From Candidatus Bathyarchaeia archaeon (lineage in GTDB: Archaea; Thermoproteota; Bathyarchaeia; Bathyarchaeales; Bathycorpusculaceae), in contig JAVYWL010000001.1 in the NCBI GenBank assembly GCA_038727135.1, positions 704,001 through 768,000 on the forward strand: a stretch of 64,000 nucleotides of DNA, read 5' to 3'. Each line of letters starts with the position of its first letter. The first letter of the stretch is position 1. Position numbers and translations under genes: made by a program. Below, in pieces: positions 17,062 through 24,139 of this stretch. A model generated the notes under the pieces. That model was not told the origin of the DNA, searched no databases, and worked only from the letters and a program-made list of their open reading frames with translations.

Positions 17062-19740
17062 ATGGCTCAAAGGCGCTTAGACGAGTTTTCAATGTCAGTG
17101 GCTAAACCTCAAGAAGTCAAAGGGGAAGCCTTACCCTTCACAGAATCCTTAAAAAAGGAACGTGGACAGCGGGTTTTCCCGCCAACGGCACCGGAAAACC
17201 TTCCTCCTTCATATTTTGTTTCAGCCACTTATGATGGCAAAGCTGGAAAAGCCTTCATCAAGCTTTACGAGCCGGTTTCTGGGCGAATCTACTTCTGGTA
17301 TGATAACACCGGGCATAAGCCTTACTGTTATACAAACCTCTCGCCCTTCGAGCTTGAAAAAATTGACCGTTTAATGAAGCATCCGGGCTTCGACCACTTC
17401 GAAATTGAGGAGAAGTTTGACCCCCTATTGGATAAGCCTGTCAAAGTGACAAAGATCGTTGCAAAAGACCCGCTGGCTATTGGGGGACGCCCAAGGGGAT
17501 GCATAAGAGACATTATCCCAGAAGACTTTCCAAAAGTTGCAGATGTCCCGGTTTCCGCGGAATCCATTAAGGTTTGGGAGTCCAAGATAAAGTATTACCA
17601 ATCCTACATTTATGATCGTGGACTTTTGCCTGGCATGGTTTATGAGGTTAGGGATGGCAATCTTGTGCCAAAACGCCTAGAAGAAGCAGAAAAAATGGTT
17701 CAGCAAATCGTTGGCACTTTCAAGGAGGCTGACGCCGAAGAACTCCAGTATATTGAGCAGTGGGCCAGGCTCCTTGAATACCCAGCTCCAAAGTTCCGCT
17801 ACGTCGCCATGGACATCGAGGTTTACTCGCCCATACCAACCCGGATGCCAGACCCCCGTGAGGCGGCGTACCCAATAGTCTGCGTCTCCCTATACAGTTC
17901 AGACGGACAAAAACGGGTTCTCCTCTTAAAAAGGGATGGAGTTCGCGAAGGCACAGAACGTTTACCAGCAGACGTTCAAATAGAATATTTTGACTCTGAA
18001 GAGAAGTTAATAATGGCTGTTTTTGAGGTTTTATGGAACTACCCCTTTGTAATAACCTTTAACGGTGACGATTTCGACTTGCGGTATTTGGCACACAGAG
18101 CGGAAAACCACGGCTTTAAGAGAGATGAAATTCCAATAGAAATTGGCAAGCGGGTTTGCCTCCTAAAATATGGCGTCCACATAGACCTCTACAAGTTCTT
18201 CTTTAACCGCTCCATACAAATTTACGCCTTTAACAACCGCTACCGAGACGTAACCCTAGGCGATGTTGGCAAGGCGCTTGTAGGCTTAGACAAGATAACG
18301 CTGGAGAAGGGTATAGGCGAATTAACATACACGGAACTCGCAAAATACTGCTTCAGGGACGCTGAAATCACCTATAAACTCACAAGCTTCGAAGATGAAC
18401 TGGTCTTGAAGCTGATCCTCGTTTTGGCTAGAATAAGTAGCATGCCGATGGAGGATGTAAGCCGACAAGGCGTTTCCCGTTGGATAAGGAATTTTATGCA
18501 TCGCGAACACCGCAGAAAGAACATGCTTATTCCAAACGCTGAAGATATACTAGCCCTAAAGGGAAAGACAGCCACAAAAGCCATAATAAAGGGCAAAAAG
18601 TACAAGGGCGCCATAGTTGTTGAACCGGTGCCGGGTGTCCACTTCAATGTCGCGGTAATGGACTTCCCAAGCCTATACCCCTCAATAATAAAAGTTTGGA
18701 ACTTGGGCTACCAGTCCATATTGTGCGGGCATCCAGAGTGCCAAGCAAACCTCGTTCCAGACACACCCCACTGGGTCTGCCGCAAAAAACGCGCCCTAGA
18801 AAGCCTACTTATAGGTTCGCTTAGAGACTTGCGAGTCCAATGGTATAAGCCAAAATCAAAGGATAAGGCTCTGCCACCAGAAGTTAGAAGCTGGTACAAC
18901 ATCATTCAAGGCGCATTGAAAGTCATTTTAAACGCCAGCTACGGAGTTTTCGGAGCAGAAACTTTCGACCTTTACTGCCCACCAGTAGCCGAAGCAACAG
19001 CAGCCATAGGAAGACACGCCATAACACAAATAATTAAGAGGGCTGAAGAGCTAGGCATCCAAGTGCTTTACGGCGACACAGACAGCGTCTTCCTAAAAAA
19101 CCCATCAAAAGAACAGATACACGAACTTGAAGAGTGGACTGAACGCGAGCTAAAAATGGGCTTAGACGTGGACAAGGTTTACCGCTACGCGGTCTTCAGC
19201 TCTCGCAAAAAGAACTACTTGGGCGTTTTAGAAGATGGAAGCGTAGACGTTAAAGGCTTGACCGGCAAGAAACGCCACATCCCCCTATTCATCAAAAAGG
19301 CTTTCGACAAAATGAAAGAACGCCTAGCCATGGTCAAAACGCCGGCAGACTTCGAAGCCGCCAAAAAGGACATTATTCAAACAATCCGCGACTGCTACAT
19401 ACGCCTAAAAAGACGCGAATGGGAAAGCCTAAACGAGCTAGCCTTCAACGTGGTACTAGGTGAAGAACCAGAACGCTACACAAAAACAACACCACAGCAC
19501 GTGAAAGCCGCAAAAATCCTAAAAGAAAGCGGAATGGAACTCAAAGCCGGAGACCTAATAAGCTTTGTAAAAGTGGTAAACGAACCCCACGTAAAACCAG
19601 TGGAACTAGCAACAAAAAACGAGATAGACGTAGACAAGTACGTAGCTTATTTGCACTCCACCTTTGACCAAGTTTTAGATGCATTAGGCTTAGACTTCGA
19701 CGAGATAATAGGCTTAACAAAACTGGAACGCTTCATGTAA
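17062..19740 (+). CDS. polB1: Family B DNA polymerase, PolB1 type
   Basis: Exo DIE, FNGDDFD, YCFRD; pol DFPSLYPSII, KVILNASYG, YGDTDS, KKNY; N-terminal PIP-like QRRLDEF; no intein. Confidence 0.93.
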   Translation: MAQRRLDEFSMSVAKPQEVKGEALPFTESLKKERGQRVFPPTAPENLPPSYFVSATYDGKAGKAFIKLYEPVSGRIYFWYDNTGHKPYCYTNLSPFELEKIDRLMKHPGFDHFEIEEKFDPLLDKPVKVTKIVAKDPLAIGGRPRGCIRDIIPEDFPKVADVPVSAESIKVWESKIKYYQSYIYDRGLLPGMVYEVRDGNLVPKRLEEAEKMVQQIVGTFKEADAEELQYIEQWARLLEYPAPKFRYVAMDIEVYSPIPTRMPDPREAAYPIVCVSLYSSDGQKRVLLLKRDGVREGTERLPADVQIEYFDSEEKLIMAVFEVLWNYPFVITFNGDDFDLRYLAHRAENHGFKRDEIPIEIGKRVCLLKYGVHIDLYKFFFNRSIQIYAFNNRYRDVTLGDVGKALVGLDKITLEKGIGELTYTELAKYCFRDAEITYKLTSFEDELVLKLILVLARISSMPMEDVSRQGVSRWIRNFMHREHRRKNMLIPNAEDILALKGKTATKAIIKGKKYKGAIVVEPVPGVHFNVAVMDFPSLYPSIIKVWNLGYQSILCGHPECQANLVPDTPHWVCRKKRALESLLIGSLRDLRVQWYKPKSKDKALPPEVRSWYNIIQGALKVILNASYGVFGAETFDLYCPPVAEATAAIGRHAITQIIKRAEELGIQVLYGDTDSVFLKNPSKEQIHELEEWTERELKMGLDVDKVYRYAVFSSRKKNYLGVLEDGSVDVKGLTGKKRHIPLFIKKAFDKMKERLAMVKTPADFEAAKKDIIQTIRDCYIRLKRREWESLNELAFNVVLGEEPERYTKTTPQHVKAAKILKESGMELKAGDLISFVKVVNEPHVKPVELATKNEIDVDKYVAYLHSTFDQVLDALGLDFDEIIGLTKLERFM

Positions 19741-19743
19741 TCT

Positions 19744-20247
19744 TTAGTTTTCCACTTTTCTTGCATATCTTTTATCTATGCCACCTCGGTGTAAAGCCTC
19801 CAGAATAGCAAATCCAATGATGTTAATCGCCACAACAGAGCCTAGGAAAATACCGAATAATCCAATCTCCACCGGAACATTAAATATGAGCGCTAGGTAA
19901 CCTCCAACGATTATTGTTATCGTGGCGTTTTCCACAAAACATGCCATAAGCCTACGGGCAACACTCTTTCCACCGACAAGCCAAGCCAAGACACATGCAA
20001 CAAAATTTGCAGCGGTGCCGCCAACAATATCAATTATGCCCAAGCCACCATAAACGTTGGCAACCAAACACCCCAAACTAGTTCCAAGAGCAACAGGCAC
20101 GCCGAAAACCACTGACAGAGGCAAAAGCGCGTCGGCAACCCTCACTTGGTATATCCCAAAGCTTATAGGCGCCAGAAAAATCACGCCAGCAGCATACAAC
20201 GCCGCAAAAACCACTGTTAAAGCCAAATCCTTACTACCAAATTTCAA
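19744..20247 (-). CDS. queT: QueT-family ECF transporter S component
   Basis: AALYA...PISFG.YQVRVADAL...GCLVAN...G..DI.GG signature. Confidence 0.85.
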   Translation of the reverse strand: MKFGSKDLALTVVFAALYAAGVIFLAPISFGIYQVRVADALLPLSVVFGVPVALGTSLGCLVANVYGGLGIIDIVGGTAANFVACVLAWLVGGKSVARRLMACFVENATITIIVGGYLALIFNVPVEIGLFGIFLGSVVAINIIGFAILEALHRGGIDKRYARKVEN

Positions 20248-20322
20248 TTTTCCACCTCCCTACGCCGGGGTTTGTATGGCGGAACGGGTGGGAGGTCCCA
20301 CTCACCCGCCAACAAAACAGCA
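20248..20322 (-). promoter_or_regulatory. Structured 5' leader of queT, riboswitch candidate
   Basis: TATA-like TTTTTATA at 20346-20339; GC-rich leader with anti-SD ACCUCC and alternative helices (see findings). Confidence 0.55.
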
Positions 20323-20357
20323 ATAACCACAAGGCAACTATAAAAACATTCTTTTGT

Positions 20358-20804
20358 TCAGTCCTCTCTTTTCGCTTCTCCAGCAGCTTCGCCCTCAACC
20401 TTCATAGCCGCTTCAGGCTCAATAGAGACGCCCTCAGCTGGTACTTCTTCCCTTCTGAAAAGGAGAAGGTCTATTGGCGGCGGAGGCGTGTTCAAAATCG
20501 TCGAGAGCAAGTACATAGCCGTAAAGGTATGCTGATAAACTTTCTGGAAAACATAGGGCACCTTTGTTTCGGGGTCAACCTCCAACATCTTATTTATCTC
20601 CGCATCTTTTCCCGTAAGTGTTGCGGTGCCCTCCACCTCAAATTTGACAATGCCCGGCTTCGTTGTCAGTTGGAGGTTAAAACCGACAACCACTGTTTGG
20701 CTTCTTCTTTCCTTCTCTTCAAGCCTAGCCTTAACATCAAAATTGACGGTTCCAGCCCCGCCCTTAACGTCCAGCTTAACCCCTACAATACTTGTAACAT
20801 CCAC
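20358..20804 (-). CDS. Hypothetical protein, possibly SecB-like fold
   Basis: Four beta strands (..VKFEVEG..), a long helix, then PPP, as in SecB-like archaeal proteins; acidic tail. Confidence 0.55.
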   Translation of the reverse strand: MDVTSIVGVKLDVKGGAGTVNFDVKARLEEKERRSQTVVVGFNLQLTTKPGIVKFEVEGTATLTGKDAEINKMLEVDPETKVPYVFQKVYQHTFTAMYLLSTILNTPPPPIDLLLFRREEVPAEGVSIEPEAAMKVEGEAAGEAKRED

Positions 20805-20966: not shown

Positions 20967-21833
20967 CTAAAACAGGAAGAGCTGAGCAGCAACAGCGACA
21001 GAAGTTGAAAAAGCAACAAAAAAGGCTATGGTGACAACTACCTGCCGCTCAGTCATAGGCCGCCTATAAGTAATAAGTGTTATTAGGCTTCTCCTATGAT
21101 CTGAGTAAAGTCTCTTCCCGTCAAAAGAGACATTCGCCTTGGTCCGGAAGAAGAAGTAGTTCAACAAAATCATGGAAGAATTAATTATGTATGGTATAAG
21201 CGAGATCAACAAACACCACTTTACATCGGAAATTATGGCAAAAGCTGCCAAAGTAACCCCAATGGCAAAAGAGCCAGTATTTCCAACAAAAATTTTCCCC
21301 TGAAAATTGAAAAAGGCAAGCACAAGCCAAACAGCCAAAGGAAGTGTTAACAAAACTGCATTTCTTCCAGAAGCAACCATGAGCCCAACTAAAACAATGG
21401 TGGGGCAAACAGTTTCTAAGCCGTTCAATCCGCCCAGCTGATTAACAGTGTTGGTGACTATCATCACAATCAGCGGAATCAAAACAAAGAAATAGTATAC
21501 GCCAAAATCGATTGTCCCTAACAATGGAAGCGTTATAGATGTTCGAGCGACACCCATCCTATAAGCCAAAGTCATCAAAGGAACAGCCACCACCAACGGA
21601 AGGAAAGCCTTGTAACGCCAACGCAAATCCATCCAGTCGTCCAGCAAGCCCATAAAACCTCCAAACAATATGCAAACAGCCAAAGTTAAAGCTGGAGAAA
21701 CATCGCCCACGTCAAACCCGAAGGCATGGAGAAAGAAGAGATAAGCTGCACTTACAACAACGTATACAACGCCTAAACCCGTTGGAACTAAGGGCTTGCC
21801 GGGCTTATGCTGGTCCGGAACCTTTGGAAACAA
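20967..21833 (-). CDS. aglH: UDP-GlcNAc:dolichyl-phosphate GlcNAc-1-P transferase (GT4/MraY family)
   Basis: DQHKPGKPLVP, GLLDD, NTVNQLGGLNGLE, FVGNTG; directly downstream of aglB. Confidence 0.8.
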   Translation of the reverse strand: MFPKVPDQHKPGKPLVPTGLGVVYVVVSAAYLFFLHAFGFDVGDVSPALTLAVCILFGGFMGLLDDWMDLRWRYKAFLPLVVAVPLMTLAYRMGVARTSITLPLLGTIDFGVYYFFVLIPLIVMIVTNTVNQLGGLNGLETVCPTIVLVGLMVASGRNAVLLTLPLAVWLVLAFFNFQGKIFVGNTGSFAIGVTLAAFAIISDVKWCLLISLIPYIINSSMILLNYFFFRTKANVSFDGKRLYSDHRRSLITLITYRRPMTERQVVVTIAFFVAFSTSVAVAAQLFLF

Positions 21834-21844
21834 ACTTTTCTCCC

Positions 21845-24139
21845 TTACCCGCTCGGATGTTCACTGTAATATTTTTCCCAGTTAATTTTGTAGAGACAAA
21901 CAAGCGGAACAACGCCGCCATATTTGCTTCCATCATTATCCAGTCCAGCAATGTATTCTGGCGTAAAGTAGAGCAACTCAATTGTTGAACCTCCTTTGCC
22001 ATGCTTTTGCTTCCAGCTTTCGACAGCGTACCGCATTAACTTGTAAATCGTCGTGTTCTGTCCTTTGGTGTTCGGTTCGAGTTCACCGCTGTCCACTTGG
22101 CCATTTTTATTAGTATCTATCCAGTTTGTTCCAAGGGTGTAGTTTCCAAACAAGCGTCTCACATCGTCAAGTTTCTCGTTCCACATTTCATCTGCTGTAA
22201 TGAAACCATTTCTTATGAAGCGTTCACGTGCCTTCCCCGATATGGCCGCCATCCAAACCCATTTACCCTCATCACCGCCAGCGTTTACCCATTCACCCGT
22301 GTCGGCGCGAATGGTTGTGAAAACAAGAACATATGATGCGTTGTACAGTTTTAGCATTCTCATCGCTTGTGTTTCATTTGCCATGAAGATAAATCCAATG
22401 TTTTCTATCTGGGTTGAATTTATTGTCGCGTTGTCCGCAAGCGAGGTAACGTTACCTAATACTGTCATCCAATATCCATAATCCCACCAGCTACACACAA
22501 CGATGTCTGGTCTTAATGTGGTCCGCATATAATGCAACATGTTGATCCACTCCTCTACTGGCGTGCTTAAGTACTGGGGTGACACTGAAAGGCTTCCCCC
22601 GGATATTGTGGTCGGTGTATAAGCCTGCATGTAAACCCTAGGCATTGGGAAGGCCAAGTTCACCATTAATACTATGAATATTAGGAACACTGCTATGCCG
22701 CTGAACTCCCTTCCAACACGCTCCAGTCCAAACTTTCTCTTAACACTTATTCTCGGCGGCTCTTTCAACAACGTCATAAAGGGTCTCAGAAGTCCGCTAA
22801 TTCCAACTGCGGCTAGGAGGCTGAAGGCTGGAGCCATAAGCACAAAAAGCCGCACCATTGAGCATGCAAAATAGAGAGATGTTAAACCGAAAACGAGGAG
22901 GAATAAGTTTCTACTGTTCAAGTTTCCTAAAATAAAGAATAACCCAATTATGAAGAAAATTATCATGATGCCAAATTCGTAGTATATGGAGCCCCATGCA
23001 GATATCCTATGTTCAGCCACAGACTCAACAAGTGGGGAAGCTTCACGAGTGAACGGATTTAGAACAGAAATAAACTTTCCGGCTATGCCTTGCATGTAGC
23101 CAGTATACCAGAGTGCTATGACGCCGCCGAGAATGAGGGCTAGGAAAACTATGACGGATATAACTTTCCATTTAGCTGTTTTCATGTTTGTAATAACTTC
23201 AGCCAGGCAGAGCAGTCCAAAAACGGCGGCGACCGGCAAGATAGCGCTTGTAAGCAGGTAGTTTGGTGAAAGCTTTGGGACATTTATGGCGATGAATAAA
23301 CCAAACCCGAAGGTTATACTGTAGGCAAGAAAAAGTTTCCGCGTATACCTCCTCATAATCAGCAAAACTAGCGTGAATAGGGTTATGACCCCTATCGGGT
23401 AATAGGCTGCACCCCATCCGGCGCAGAAGTAGCCTAAAACTGCTCCGGAGGCGAGGGCGTATTTTACAGTTGAGCTGATATGCCTATCTTCCTCAATGGC
23501 CCTTAGGAACAGAAAGGCGAAAAGTATGAGGGAGAGTATGCCAATGGTTTCATCGTCAAAGAAGCCTACTGATGTCCGTTGGATGTAGGATGGTTCTAAA
23601 GCAAGGAAAAGCGCAGCCAGTAAGCCTACTGGTTTGCCGCCGAAATCTTTTCCAAGGAAGTACATGGCAAGGCATGCCAATGTCCCCATGATGGCTGGGA
23701 ATAGAGCGCAGAAGCTCATTAGGTCTATGCCTACTCCAAGCATTGAAACTATTTTATAGAGAAAGGCTGCTGTCATTGGGAGCCCTGGGAAAGCGGCTTT
23801 GGCAACGTTTATTCCATCAGGGTACCATCTTTGGCGGTCAATCCACCCTTTTCCATTATTTTCTATGGCCCATGAAATGAAGCCGTCTTTAACTATTTTT
23901 TCTGTGAAACGGTATTGGAAGTATGGGTCAAACTCTGATAAGAGAAGGTTTGTTTTGCCTGTTGTTGGGTCTATTTCCCATCGCATTGGAAACAGCCGTA
24001 TCACGAAGGCTATAAAAAGTATAAGCGTTAAAGCCGCGATGGTCATTATTGACGTGTGGCTTAATTTTGGGCGGAGTTTTCCGAGGCTTTTGATGGCGTT
24101 GATTATTCGCTCTTTTTTGGAGAGGCTTCTTGTTTCCAT
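21845..24139 (-). CDS. aglB: Oligosaccharyltransferase catalytic subunit (STT3)
   Basis: EFDPY, DDE, SVAEH, WWDYG, DNATIN and DEGK..WM (DK motif). Confidence 0.95.
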   Translation of the reverse strand: METRSLSKKERIINAIKSLGKLRPKLSHTSIMTIAALTLILFIAFVIRLFPMRWEIDPTTGKTNLLLSEFDPYFQYRFTEKIVKDGFISWAIENNGKGWIDRQRWYPDGINVAKAAFPGLPMTAAFLYKIVSMLGVGIDLMSFCALFPAIMGTLACLAMYFLGKDFGGKPVGLLAALFLALEPSYIQRTSVGFFDDETIGILSLILFAFLFLRAIEEDRHISSTVKYALASGAVLGYFCAGWGAAYYPIGVITLFTLVLLIMRRYTRKLFLAYSITFGFGLFIAINVPKLSPNYLLTSAILPVAAVFGLLCLAEVITNMKTAKWKVISVIVFLALILGGVIALWYTGYMQGIAGKFISVLNPFTREASPLVESVAEHRISAWGSIYYEFGIMIIFFIIGLFFILGNLNSRNLFLLVFGLTSLYFACSMVRLFVLMAPAFSLLAAVGISGLLRPFMTLLKEPPRISVKRKFGLERVGREFSGIAVFLIFIVLMVNLAFPMPRVYMQAYTPTTISGGSLSVSPQYLSTPVEEWINMLHYMRTTLRPDIVVCSWWDYGYWMTVLGNVTSLADNATINSTQIENIGFIFMANETQAMRMLKLYNASYVLVFTTIRADTGEWVNAGGDEGKWVWMAAISGKARERFIRNGFITADEMWNEKLDDVRRLFGNYTLGTNWIDTNKNGQVDSGELEPNTKGQNTTIYKLMRYAVESWKQKHGKGGSTIELLYFTPEYIAGLDNDGSKYGGVVPLVCLYKINWEKYYSEHPSG

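Follow-up and report, generated by a model that had tools for sequence, protein, structure and literature searches.

A conserved pseudoknotted leader upstream of queT in Bathyarchaeia, probably a translational riboswitch of a previously undescribed class

Does the 5' untranslated region (UTR) of an archaeal queT gene carry a riboswitch and, if so, what might it sense and how might it act? The gene in question lies in a 64,000-nucleotide (nt) stretch of contig JAVYWL010000001.1 (assembly GCA_038727135.1), here termed the window; all positions are those of the window, and both the gene and its leader element are read on the minus strand. The gene is a 167-amino-acid (aa) open reading frame (ORF) in the ORF list (20247-19744, with a UUG start), and a Pfam search assigns its product to QueT (PF06177, 86.8 bits against a cut-off of 33.7, E = 2.3e-24), confirming the name given to it by an earlier reading made without database searches. 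This sequence-only reading quoted the leader and its coordinates exactly (TTTTTATA at 20346-20339, GGCGGGUG at 20310-20303, ACCUCC at 20296-20291, CACCCGUU at 20290-20283 and GGAGGU at 20259-20254), and every complementarity that it drew between the parts of the leader is present where it was placed. It suggested comparing the leaders of related queT genes, and that comparison has revealed both conservation and covariation.

The conserved element occupies 20311-20254 (58 nt). That it is a conserved, pseudoknotted leader element can be regarded as close to certain. On the comparative evidence it is likely to be a riboswitch for some 7-deazaguanine, and it probably comprises the aptamer and expression platform of a previously undescribed class of translational OFF riboswitch in the queT 5' UTR, with preQ0 as the probable ligand. 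Its parts, in 5' to 3' order on the minus strand, are as follows.

20306..20311, minus strand: 5' strand of helix P1, U + GGCGG (covariation; the five core pairs are 98.4% paired).
20301..20305, minus strand: J1, GUGAG, nearly invariant and with no covarying partner found (G in 97, U in 97, G in 89, A in 71 and G in 85 of 98 copies).
20288..20301, minus strand: optional local hairpin GUGGG-ACCU-CCCAC, overlapping the anti-Shine-Dalgarno (anti-SD) and a possible ligand-free conformer (minimum free energy (MFE) fold; -7.8 kcal/mol).
20290..20296, minus strand: 5' strand of the pseudoknot helix P3, the anti-SD ACCUCCC (seven pairs with 20254-20260; covariation; duplex -12.0 kcal/mol).
20283..20289, minus strand: L2, ACCCGUU, a conserved linker (CC-G-UU in 95, 92, 98, 94 and 98 of 98 copies).
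20277..20282, minus strand: 3' strand of P1, CCGCC + A (covariation).
20265..20276, minus strand: 3' tail UACAAACCCCGG, conserved as AUAAA-YCCC-GG, for which no conserved pairing partner was detected (column conservation, n = 98).
20254..20260, minus strand: 3' strand of P3, GGGAGGU, including the Shine-Dalgarno (SD) sequence GGAGG 7 nt before the start codon (covariation).

Homologues of QueT were found in 36 of 41 related genomes, and in 29 of 30 relative loci the element lies within 220 nt upstream of the queT match. These 29 copies share the arrangement GGCGGGUGAGUGG..CCUCC(C)ACCCGUUCCGCC-AUAAACCCCGG-nGUAGG(G)AGGUG, which ends a few bases before the start codon, and they precede QueT proteins that are mostly just 30-45% identical. 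At the thirtieth locus (L012; L-numbers label loci and f-numbers genome families in this analysis) the element precedes a whole queT-queC-queT operon, upstream of its first gene. A covariance model built from the 29 relative copies, R1, matches the window's own genome once, at the studied site (87 bits). It matches 93 of 151 genomes drawn evenly from the class, mostly with one copy per genome, and 72 of 95 high-quality genomes among them. In a sample of the phylum, 28 of 151 genomes were matched, 15 of them outside the class: nine of 15 in f44, all three in f56, both in f60 and one in f64, with none in the large families f38 (0/19), f42 (0/13) and f47 (0/13). When one genome for each prokaryotic species was searched with a strict pattern of three blocks, at least 119 loci were detected. 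The titles of the 80 matches listed are almost all Bathyarchaeia or Bathyarchaeota, which identifies the class as Bathyarchaeia; also among the matches listed are a few metagenome-assembled genomes labelled 'Nitrososphaerota' and one each labelled Methanomethylicota, Promethearchaeati, Methanocella and Acidiferrales, the binning of which may be unsure.

The case for the two helices was built on two alignments. The first, A2, comprises 100 copies gathered by covariance-model search and aligned to R1. As its pseudoknot columns were inconsistent between copies of the CCUCCC and CCUCC types, a second model, R2, was built on the pseudoknot helix only and used to align 98 copies, other classes included, as A7; R2 did not model P1. 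In A2, the innermost pair of P1 (columns 9-68) is G-C in 85 copies, C-G in 15 and unpaired in none, and an outer pair (columns 5-72) is G-C in 68, A-U in 20, G-U in five, U-A in two and unpaired in five; the compensatory changes in P1 are from G-C to C-G in 14-15 sequences and from G-C to A-U in 20. Over this alignment the share of paired cells is 91.7% (83.3% after shuffling). The covariation score of 0.244 compares with 0.107 in shuffles, none of 500 of which reaches it, and with values at or below 0.078 in slid controls. In A7, P1 is 98.4% paired despite its absence from R2, while P3 is 94.0% paired and shows changes on both sides in six of its seven pairs; covariation here scores 0.312, shuffles giving 0.131 (again the observed value is reached by none of 500 shuffles, slid controls not exceeding 0.078). 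An unsupervised scan of mutual information over all A7 column pairs placed exactly the P1 and P3 pairs in its top seven positions.

Evidence for P3 can also be obtained without an alignment: in every one of 100 copies the P1 loop and the 3' tail can form an uninterrupted duplex, the best of which is never shorter than four pairs and usually has six to eight. The complementary variants of the helix include CCUCCC/GGGAGG, CCUCC/GGAGG, CCUUCC/GGAAGG, CCCUCU/AGAGGG, CACCUC/GAGGUG, CUCCCA/UGGGAG and CCACC/GGUGG; in a further variant, UCCGAC/GUCGGA or UUCCGAC/GUCGGAA, the 3' strand departs from the canonical SD and directly adjoins the AUG. Judged by eye, the compensatory types are spread over at least six families. 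The bases that flank CCUCC/GGAGG cores are paired in 82 of 160 cases where 47.7 would be expected, and those of the second flank in 127 of 160 where 103.8 would be expected, neither level being attained in any of 2000 shuffles. The eighth-ranked mutual-information pair, together with anchored counts, points to a two-pair extension of P3, A20289-U20262 and C20288-G20263 with A20261 bulged, in which C-G becomes U-A in seven or eight sequences and A-U becomes C-G in 15; many cells are non-canonical, and the continuation of P3 beyond the bulge is proposed only tentatively. By the criterion of covariation, then, the leader is an H-type pseudoknot, in which P1 (GGCGG/CCGCC) encloses a loop whose anti-SD pairs with the SD region before the start codon. 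The pairing of anti-SD with SD, which the sequence-only reading had proposed, is thereby borne out.

Outside the helices, the least variable positions in the 98 diverse copies are the GUG after P1, the CC-G-UU of L2 and the A, AAA, CCC and GG of the tail. Within the tail, the A at 20275 is present in 98 of 98 copies, AAA in 97-98, CCC in 96-98 and GG in 93-94. The mutual-information scan of A7 found no covarying partner for these invariant unpaired bases, tail columns included, and they have the appearance of a ligand pocket with its tertiary contacts. Two other interpretations of these segments were tried and dropped. Pairing of the tail with the G-run of J1, with the G residues next to P1 or with L2 shows no covariation, and is also disfavoured by the GCGC variant of P1, which leaves the tail unchanged. 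The sequence GAGUGG was considered as a mimic of the tRNA D-loop that might serve TgtA as a substrate, but many copies have lost its AG or have other bases there (GUGGUGG, GUAGGUGG).

The genes behind the motif belong almost entirely to one pathway. In the gene-blind R1 sample of the class, the next gene encodes QueT in 70 of 76 cases; three of the others have an unknown membrane protein of 229-234 aa and one a truncated QueT followed by QueC, while one is a doubtful weak match whose next gene is unrelated and another is cut off by the end of its contig. Among 119 pattern loci (of at least 119 in all), the next gene encodes QueT in 111 and a radical-SAM protein in six, and two have too little sequence. 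The best NCBIfam matches of the radical-SAM protein are five QueE models (E = 1e-31 to 1e-11), and QueC follows this QueE-like gene wherever the downstream sequence allowed a check. Taken together, 187 of 195 gene-blind cases have a pathway-linked next gene (QueT 181, QueE 6; the pattern part being these 119 loci). QueC is encoded within 1 kb downstream in 16 of 219 loci, and motif-queT-queC is the usual order outside the class. At one locus the QueE-like gene behind the motif is followed by a gene for a 483-aa protein in which QueC is fused to a glutamine amidotransferase domain (L159:5243-6691(+)).

The unknown protein that takes the place of QueT directly behind the motif at three loci (L117:870-1571(+), L113:870-1571(+) and L108:112-798(-)) is a multi-pass membrane protein of 229-234 aa. 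It has no match to any Pfam or NCBIfam family, but in a profile comparison it weakly resembles QueT over the N-terminal half of the latter (78% probability, E = 1.8e-5), and it is a candidate 7-deazaguanine transporter.

TgtA, the tRNA-guanine(15) transglycosylase, inserts preQ0 at position 15 of tRNA. The window's own genome encodes this enzyme (572 bits against a cut-off of 350). In the same genome, which is 94.7% complete, no QueD/PTPS match was found, and the QueC and QueE searches yielded only weak partial matches on PP-loop or radical-SAM cores (30.9, 22.3 and 29.4 bits). With TgtA present and QueC, QueD and QueE undetected, the organism probably cannot make preQ0 and must import it, in which case feedback control of the importer by its own cargo would be sensible. 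Archaea make archaeosine from preQ0, which is both the product of QueC and the substrate of TgtA (PMC5372724, in the available part of that paper), and for this reason preQ0 is the most likely ligand.

The position of the element relative to the promoter indicates which part of the transcript it would occupy. The remaining features of the locus are listed here.

20339..20346, minus strand: TATA-box-like sequence TTTTTATA, whose start lies 36 nt before the first G of P1.
20312..20318, minus strand: zone in which transcription is predicted to start, a few nt before P1, from the TATA position and the usual spacing.
20245..20247, minus strand: UUG start codon of queT, where the alignment of homologues begins.
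19744..20247, minus strand: queT, encoding a 167-aa protein of the QueT transporter family (PF06177).

When 203 unique upstream regions were anchored on P1, an AT-rich peak was found 28-34 nt upstream of the helix, preceded by an A-rich stretch, with the A/T fraction reaching 0.83-0.89 at -32 to -29. In 107 of these regions the start of a TATA-like hexamer falls between -37 and -30, while a simple regular expression failed to find one between -50 and -15 in 80 of them. The usual archaeal spacing from TATA box to start is approximately 26-27 nt. Given this spacing and the position of the AT-rich peak, transcripts would begin a few bases before P1, and the element would form the very 5' end of the mRNA. 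Among the sequencing runs listed as containing this stretch, none is an RNA run; two that are labelled metatranscriptomic cover a small share of it as contigs and are probably DNA.

On the proposed mechanism, a 7-deazaguanine base, most likely preQ0, would bind among the invariant bases at the junction of P1 and P3. Bound ligand would stabilise P3, leaving the SD, which lies 7 nt from the UUG, occluded, and translation of the importer would fall, as would that of queE-queC or queT-queC in other genomes. Without ligand, P3 would open and the SD would be free; in many ligand-free copies the anti-SD may then be held by the local hairpin GUGGG/CCCAC. Nearest-neighbour energies are -8.9 kcal/mol for P1, -7.8 kcal/mol for the local hairpin and -12.0 kcal/mol for the P3 duplex before any penalty for the pseudoknot loop; the last two are comparable in size, and the energies are compatible with such a switch. 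The translational OFF switch for a QueT substrate such as preQ0 or preQ1, as the sequence-only reading had envisaged it, thus gains support from class-wide conservation, from covariation in the SD pseudoknot and from the transport and biosynthesis genes downstream.

That reading had also specified the two states: an OFF fold consisting of an 8-bp stem, GGCGGGUG/CACCCGUU, and a small CGCC/GGCG hairpin, and an ON fold of UUUGU-UGGCGG/CCGCCA-U-ACAAA capped by GUGGG/CCCAC. In this exact form the model is extremely unlikely to be right, even though the window contains every complementarity on which it relies, the ON form appears in the MFE fold and the OFF stem is worth -11.1 kcal/mol. The OFF stem is contradicted by the 14-15 sequences of the type GGCGCG...UUGCGCC, which keep P1 paired as GGCGC/GCGCC but would set C opposite C in the OFF stem, and it is also broken by CUG variants of L2. 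Nor is the small hairpin conserved, relatives having GGUG, GGAG or GGGU in place of GGCG. The ON stem survives in part: its GGCGG/CCGCC portion covaries, but the first pair of the lower UUUGU/ACAAA portion (columns 4-73) is formed in just 55 of 100 copies, and much of this lower stem probably lies upstream of the transcript start. The capping hairpin, which overlaps the anti-SD by three bases, finds weaker support in the counts for columns 15-60 (U-A in 72, G-C in 12 and C-G in three), with the C-G switch visible on A7 too, whereas the enrichment over shuffles expected of such a hairpin is not seen.

Several observations weigh against the riboswitch interpretation, or limit how far it can be taken. 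The identity of the ligand is drawn from gene association only. The distribution of the motif is not that of the gene: QueT is found in 112 of the 151 class genomes and the motif in 93, and two families have QueT throughout and the motif nowhere (f20, 7/7 and 0/7; f21, 5/5 and 0/5). The QueE assignments, though top-ranked, fall below the NCBIfam equivalog cut-offs, and at 94.7% completeness the window's own genome may hold a QueC, QueD or QueE that was missed. The leader does not fold exceptionally well, having an MFE of -28.9 kcal/mol against -25.3 +/- 3.7 in dinucleotide shuffles (z = -0.97), 32 of 200 of which equal or surpass it. When P1 is imposed on the fold, 53 of 98 copies have the anti-SD paired within the loop; shuffling the 5' part of the loop gives 52%, and the local hairpin is absent from some copies (L068, L008, L073 and L086). 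As regards the covariation, much of the element is invariant, so that many pairs are uninformative; A2 and A7 had been fitted to the very helices under test; sequences, and not independent events, were counted; and the GCGC variant of P1, which occurs in four families (f26, f27, f30 and f35), may represent one event.

An SD-sequestering pseudoknot of this kind could be read in other ways. The same riboswitch might respond to another ligand: preQ1, 7-carboxy-7-deazaguanine, guanine, archaeosine base, queuine or some other QueT cargo. Both the structure and the regulon would fit any 7-deazaguanine derivative alike, and bacterial QueT has been discussed as a preQ1 transporter while bacterial preQ1 aptamers also bind preQ0 (PMC11625349; this review is cited throughout for its available part). 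However, the motif also precedes queE-queC, the end product of which is preQ0, and the organism has TgtA, whose use of preQ0 is established knowledge; a ligand other than preQ0 is accordingly judged unlikely. The comparative data are equally compatible with a leader bound by a protein, either a pathway enzyme or a dedicated RNA-binding regulator, that stabilises the pseudoknot with no direct sensing of a metabolite, and the invariant unpaired bases would suit such a protein as well as a small molecule. This is quite unlikely, as the genes beside the motif encode QueT, QueE, QueC and the unknown membrane protein but no conserved regulator, and because riboswitches are usually recognised by just such a compact pseudoknot with conserved junctions before both transport and biosynthesis genes, here in two classes or more.

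A constitutive or temperature-dependent attenuator, with no ligand at all, is very unlikely. Helices that sequester the SD can serve as RNA thermometers, and the DNA data sets that contain this stretch are hot-spring metagenomes; but a thermometer needs just the SD helix and not some 20 nearly invariant unpaired positions, nor would it be expected to track one pathway in 187 of the 195 gene-blind cases. A conserved and covarying 5' UTR structure, linked to transport and biosynthesis genes of one metabolite, is what is generally looked for in a riboswitch, and both traits are seen here.

If the element is a riboswitch, it does not appear to belong to a known class. A cmscan search of window positions 20100-20500 against Rfam 15 (E <= 10) found no match to preQ1-I, preQ1-II or preQ1-III, the sole match being to a fragment of a human long non-coding RNA outside the leader (E = 9.7), and the same search with 20 diverse copies of the element found no match to these or any other family. 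The sequence-only reading was therefore right to set the leader apart from the known preQ1 motifs.

The element resembles preQ1-II (RF01054), found in Lactobacillales, which also occupies the 5' UTR of queT and acts on translation. PreQ1-II carries an embedded hairpin between its P1-equivalent and the SD strand, whereas no covarying helix is found in the tail of the present element; the stems here are G+C-rich, a C-run is present, and the host belongs to the Archaea. In preQ1-II the SD is a strand of the pseudoknot and is fully occluded with ligand bound (PMC11625349), much as the SD lies inside a pseudoknot upstream of queT here, but the preQ1-II fold is an HLout pseudoknot with U-A-U/U-A-A triples (PMC11625349) rather than a plain H-type one, and the RF01054 model has no match.

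In topology the element resembles the translational types II and III of preQ1-I (RF00522), likewise H-type, with a short P1 followed by an A-rich 3' tail; here the pseudoknot is evident from covariation and the A..AAA of the tail from its presence in 97-98 of 98 copies. In both, the SD is overlapped by the second helix through its 3' strand, and preQ1-I regulates queT, yhhQ and queCDEF (PMC11625349). Yet RF00522 has no match here, and a class I aptamer measures 25-45 nt (PMC9495176, available part) against 58 nt for this element, which has long conserved loops (GUGAG..., CCGUU, AAA-YCCC-GG) and a second helix of seven, possibly nine, base pairs rather than a few. The likely ligand also differs, being preQ0 here, since archaea make archaeosine from preQ0 (PMC5372724). 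From preQ1-III (RF02680) the element recalls helix P5, in which an anti-SD in a hairpin loop docks on a 3' SD to form a regulatory helix (PMC11625349). Class III is, however, approximately 100 nt long, with five helices and a separate HLout aptamer (PMC11625349), whereas here there are two helices, or three with the optional hairpin, the SD helix is part of the only pseudoknot and RF02680 has no match.

Bacterial preQ1 riboswitches, as a group the closest in function to the present element, control queT, yhhQ and queCDEF, class I as H-type and classes II and III as HLout pseudoknots, and several of them bury the SD (PMC11625349). The three known classes are described from bacteria, and the word 'archaea' does not occur in the available part of this review, which dates from 2024 (PMC11625349). 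Neither an archaeal preQ0 or preQ1 riboswitch nor any riboswitch from Bathyarchaeia was found described in the literature searched, from which subscription journals and supplements were largely excluded.

Some copies of the motif, and some queT genes that lack it, are unusual. A third copy in one genome is degenerate (L066:801-864(+), R1 31 bits), with U opposite U in the SD helix; the queT behind it carries an in-frame stop, and this is probably a decaying copy. The queT genes of f20 (L259-L261), which have no motif, have a TATA-like box approximately 25 nt before the ATG and look leaderless, and in f21 a queT without the motif directly follows the 3' end of a tRNA gene in two of the three loci read (L262 and L264). 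Upstream of another motif-less queT is a sequence resembling a C/D-box small RNA (L270:81-136(-); sR47, 27.8 bits, E = 5e-4, below the gathering score). In three genomes without the main motif, from f11 and f16, queT is preceded by a second, longer conserved leader (L265, ~130-250; L268, ~150-270; L275-L277), which starts with a similar GGCGGGU...CCGCC hairpin and continues with the common blocks GGAUGAUGGG, GGGAAAUC and CCGCAGAA. It has no Rfam match, its pattern occurs in three of 401 class genomes, and it could be a rearranged variant or another element.

The surroundings of queT in the window can be described briefly. An 892-aa ORF (17062-19740(+)) converges on queT and ends 3 nt from its stop codon, so that there is no room for separate terminators; by eye its sequence resembles a family-B DNA polymerase. 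Just upstream of the queT promoter lies a 148-aa ORF (20358-20804(-)) that has no Pfam family, and for which 11 of the 30 loci have the sequence of the C-terminal end again upstream of queT (L002-L005, L016, L018-L020 and L024, and in diverged form L006 and L007). Further upstream (20967-24139(-)), a glycosyltransferase family 4 protein (PF00953) adjoins a 764-aa multi-pass membrane protein that by eye is oligosaccharyltransferase-like, which suggests an N-glycosylation gene pair.

Few riboswitch classes are known to work in archaea. The balance of probability slightly favours the broadest statement of the present case: that this is the first archaeal 7-deazapurine riboswitch and that it adds to the three preQ1 classes a fourth one, independent in structure and selective not for preQ1 but for preQ0 with its nitrile group; that it is old enough for Bathyarchaeia to share it with one or more other classes of the phylum; and that it controls import through queT, synthesis through queE-queC, and the membrane protein family of ~230 aa thereby marked as a candidate 7-deazaguanine transporter. 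Were this true, 7-deazaguanine aptamers would gain a new fold, probably the first to have been selected for preQ0, and there would be an example of riboswitch control by SD sequestration in an uncultured archaeal lineage. It would also assign a function to an unannotated membrane protein family, and give a direct handle on the salvage of archaeosine precursors and on which Bathyarchaeia depend upon it.

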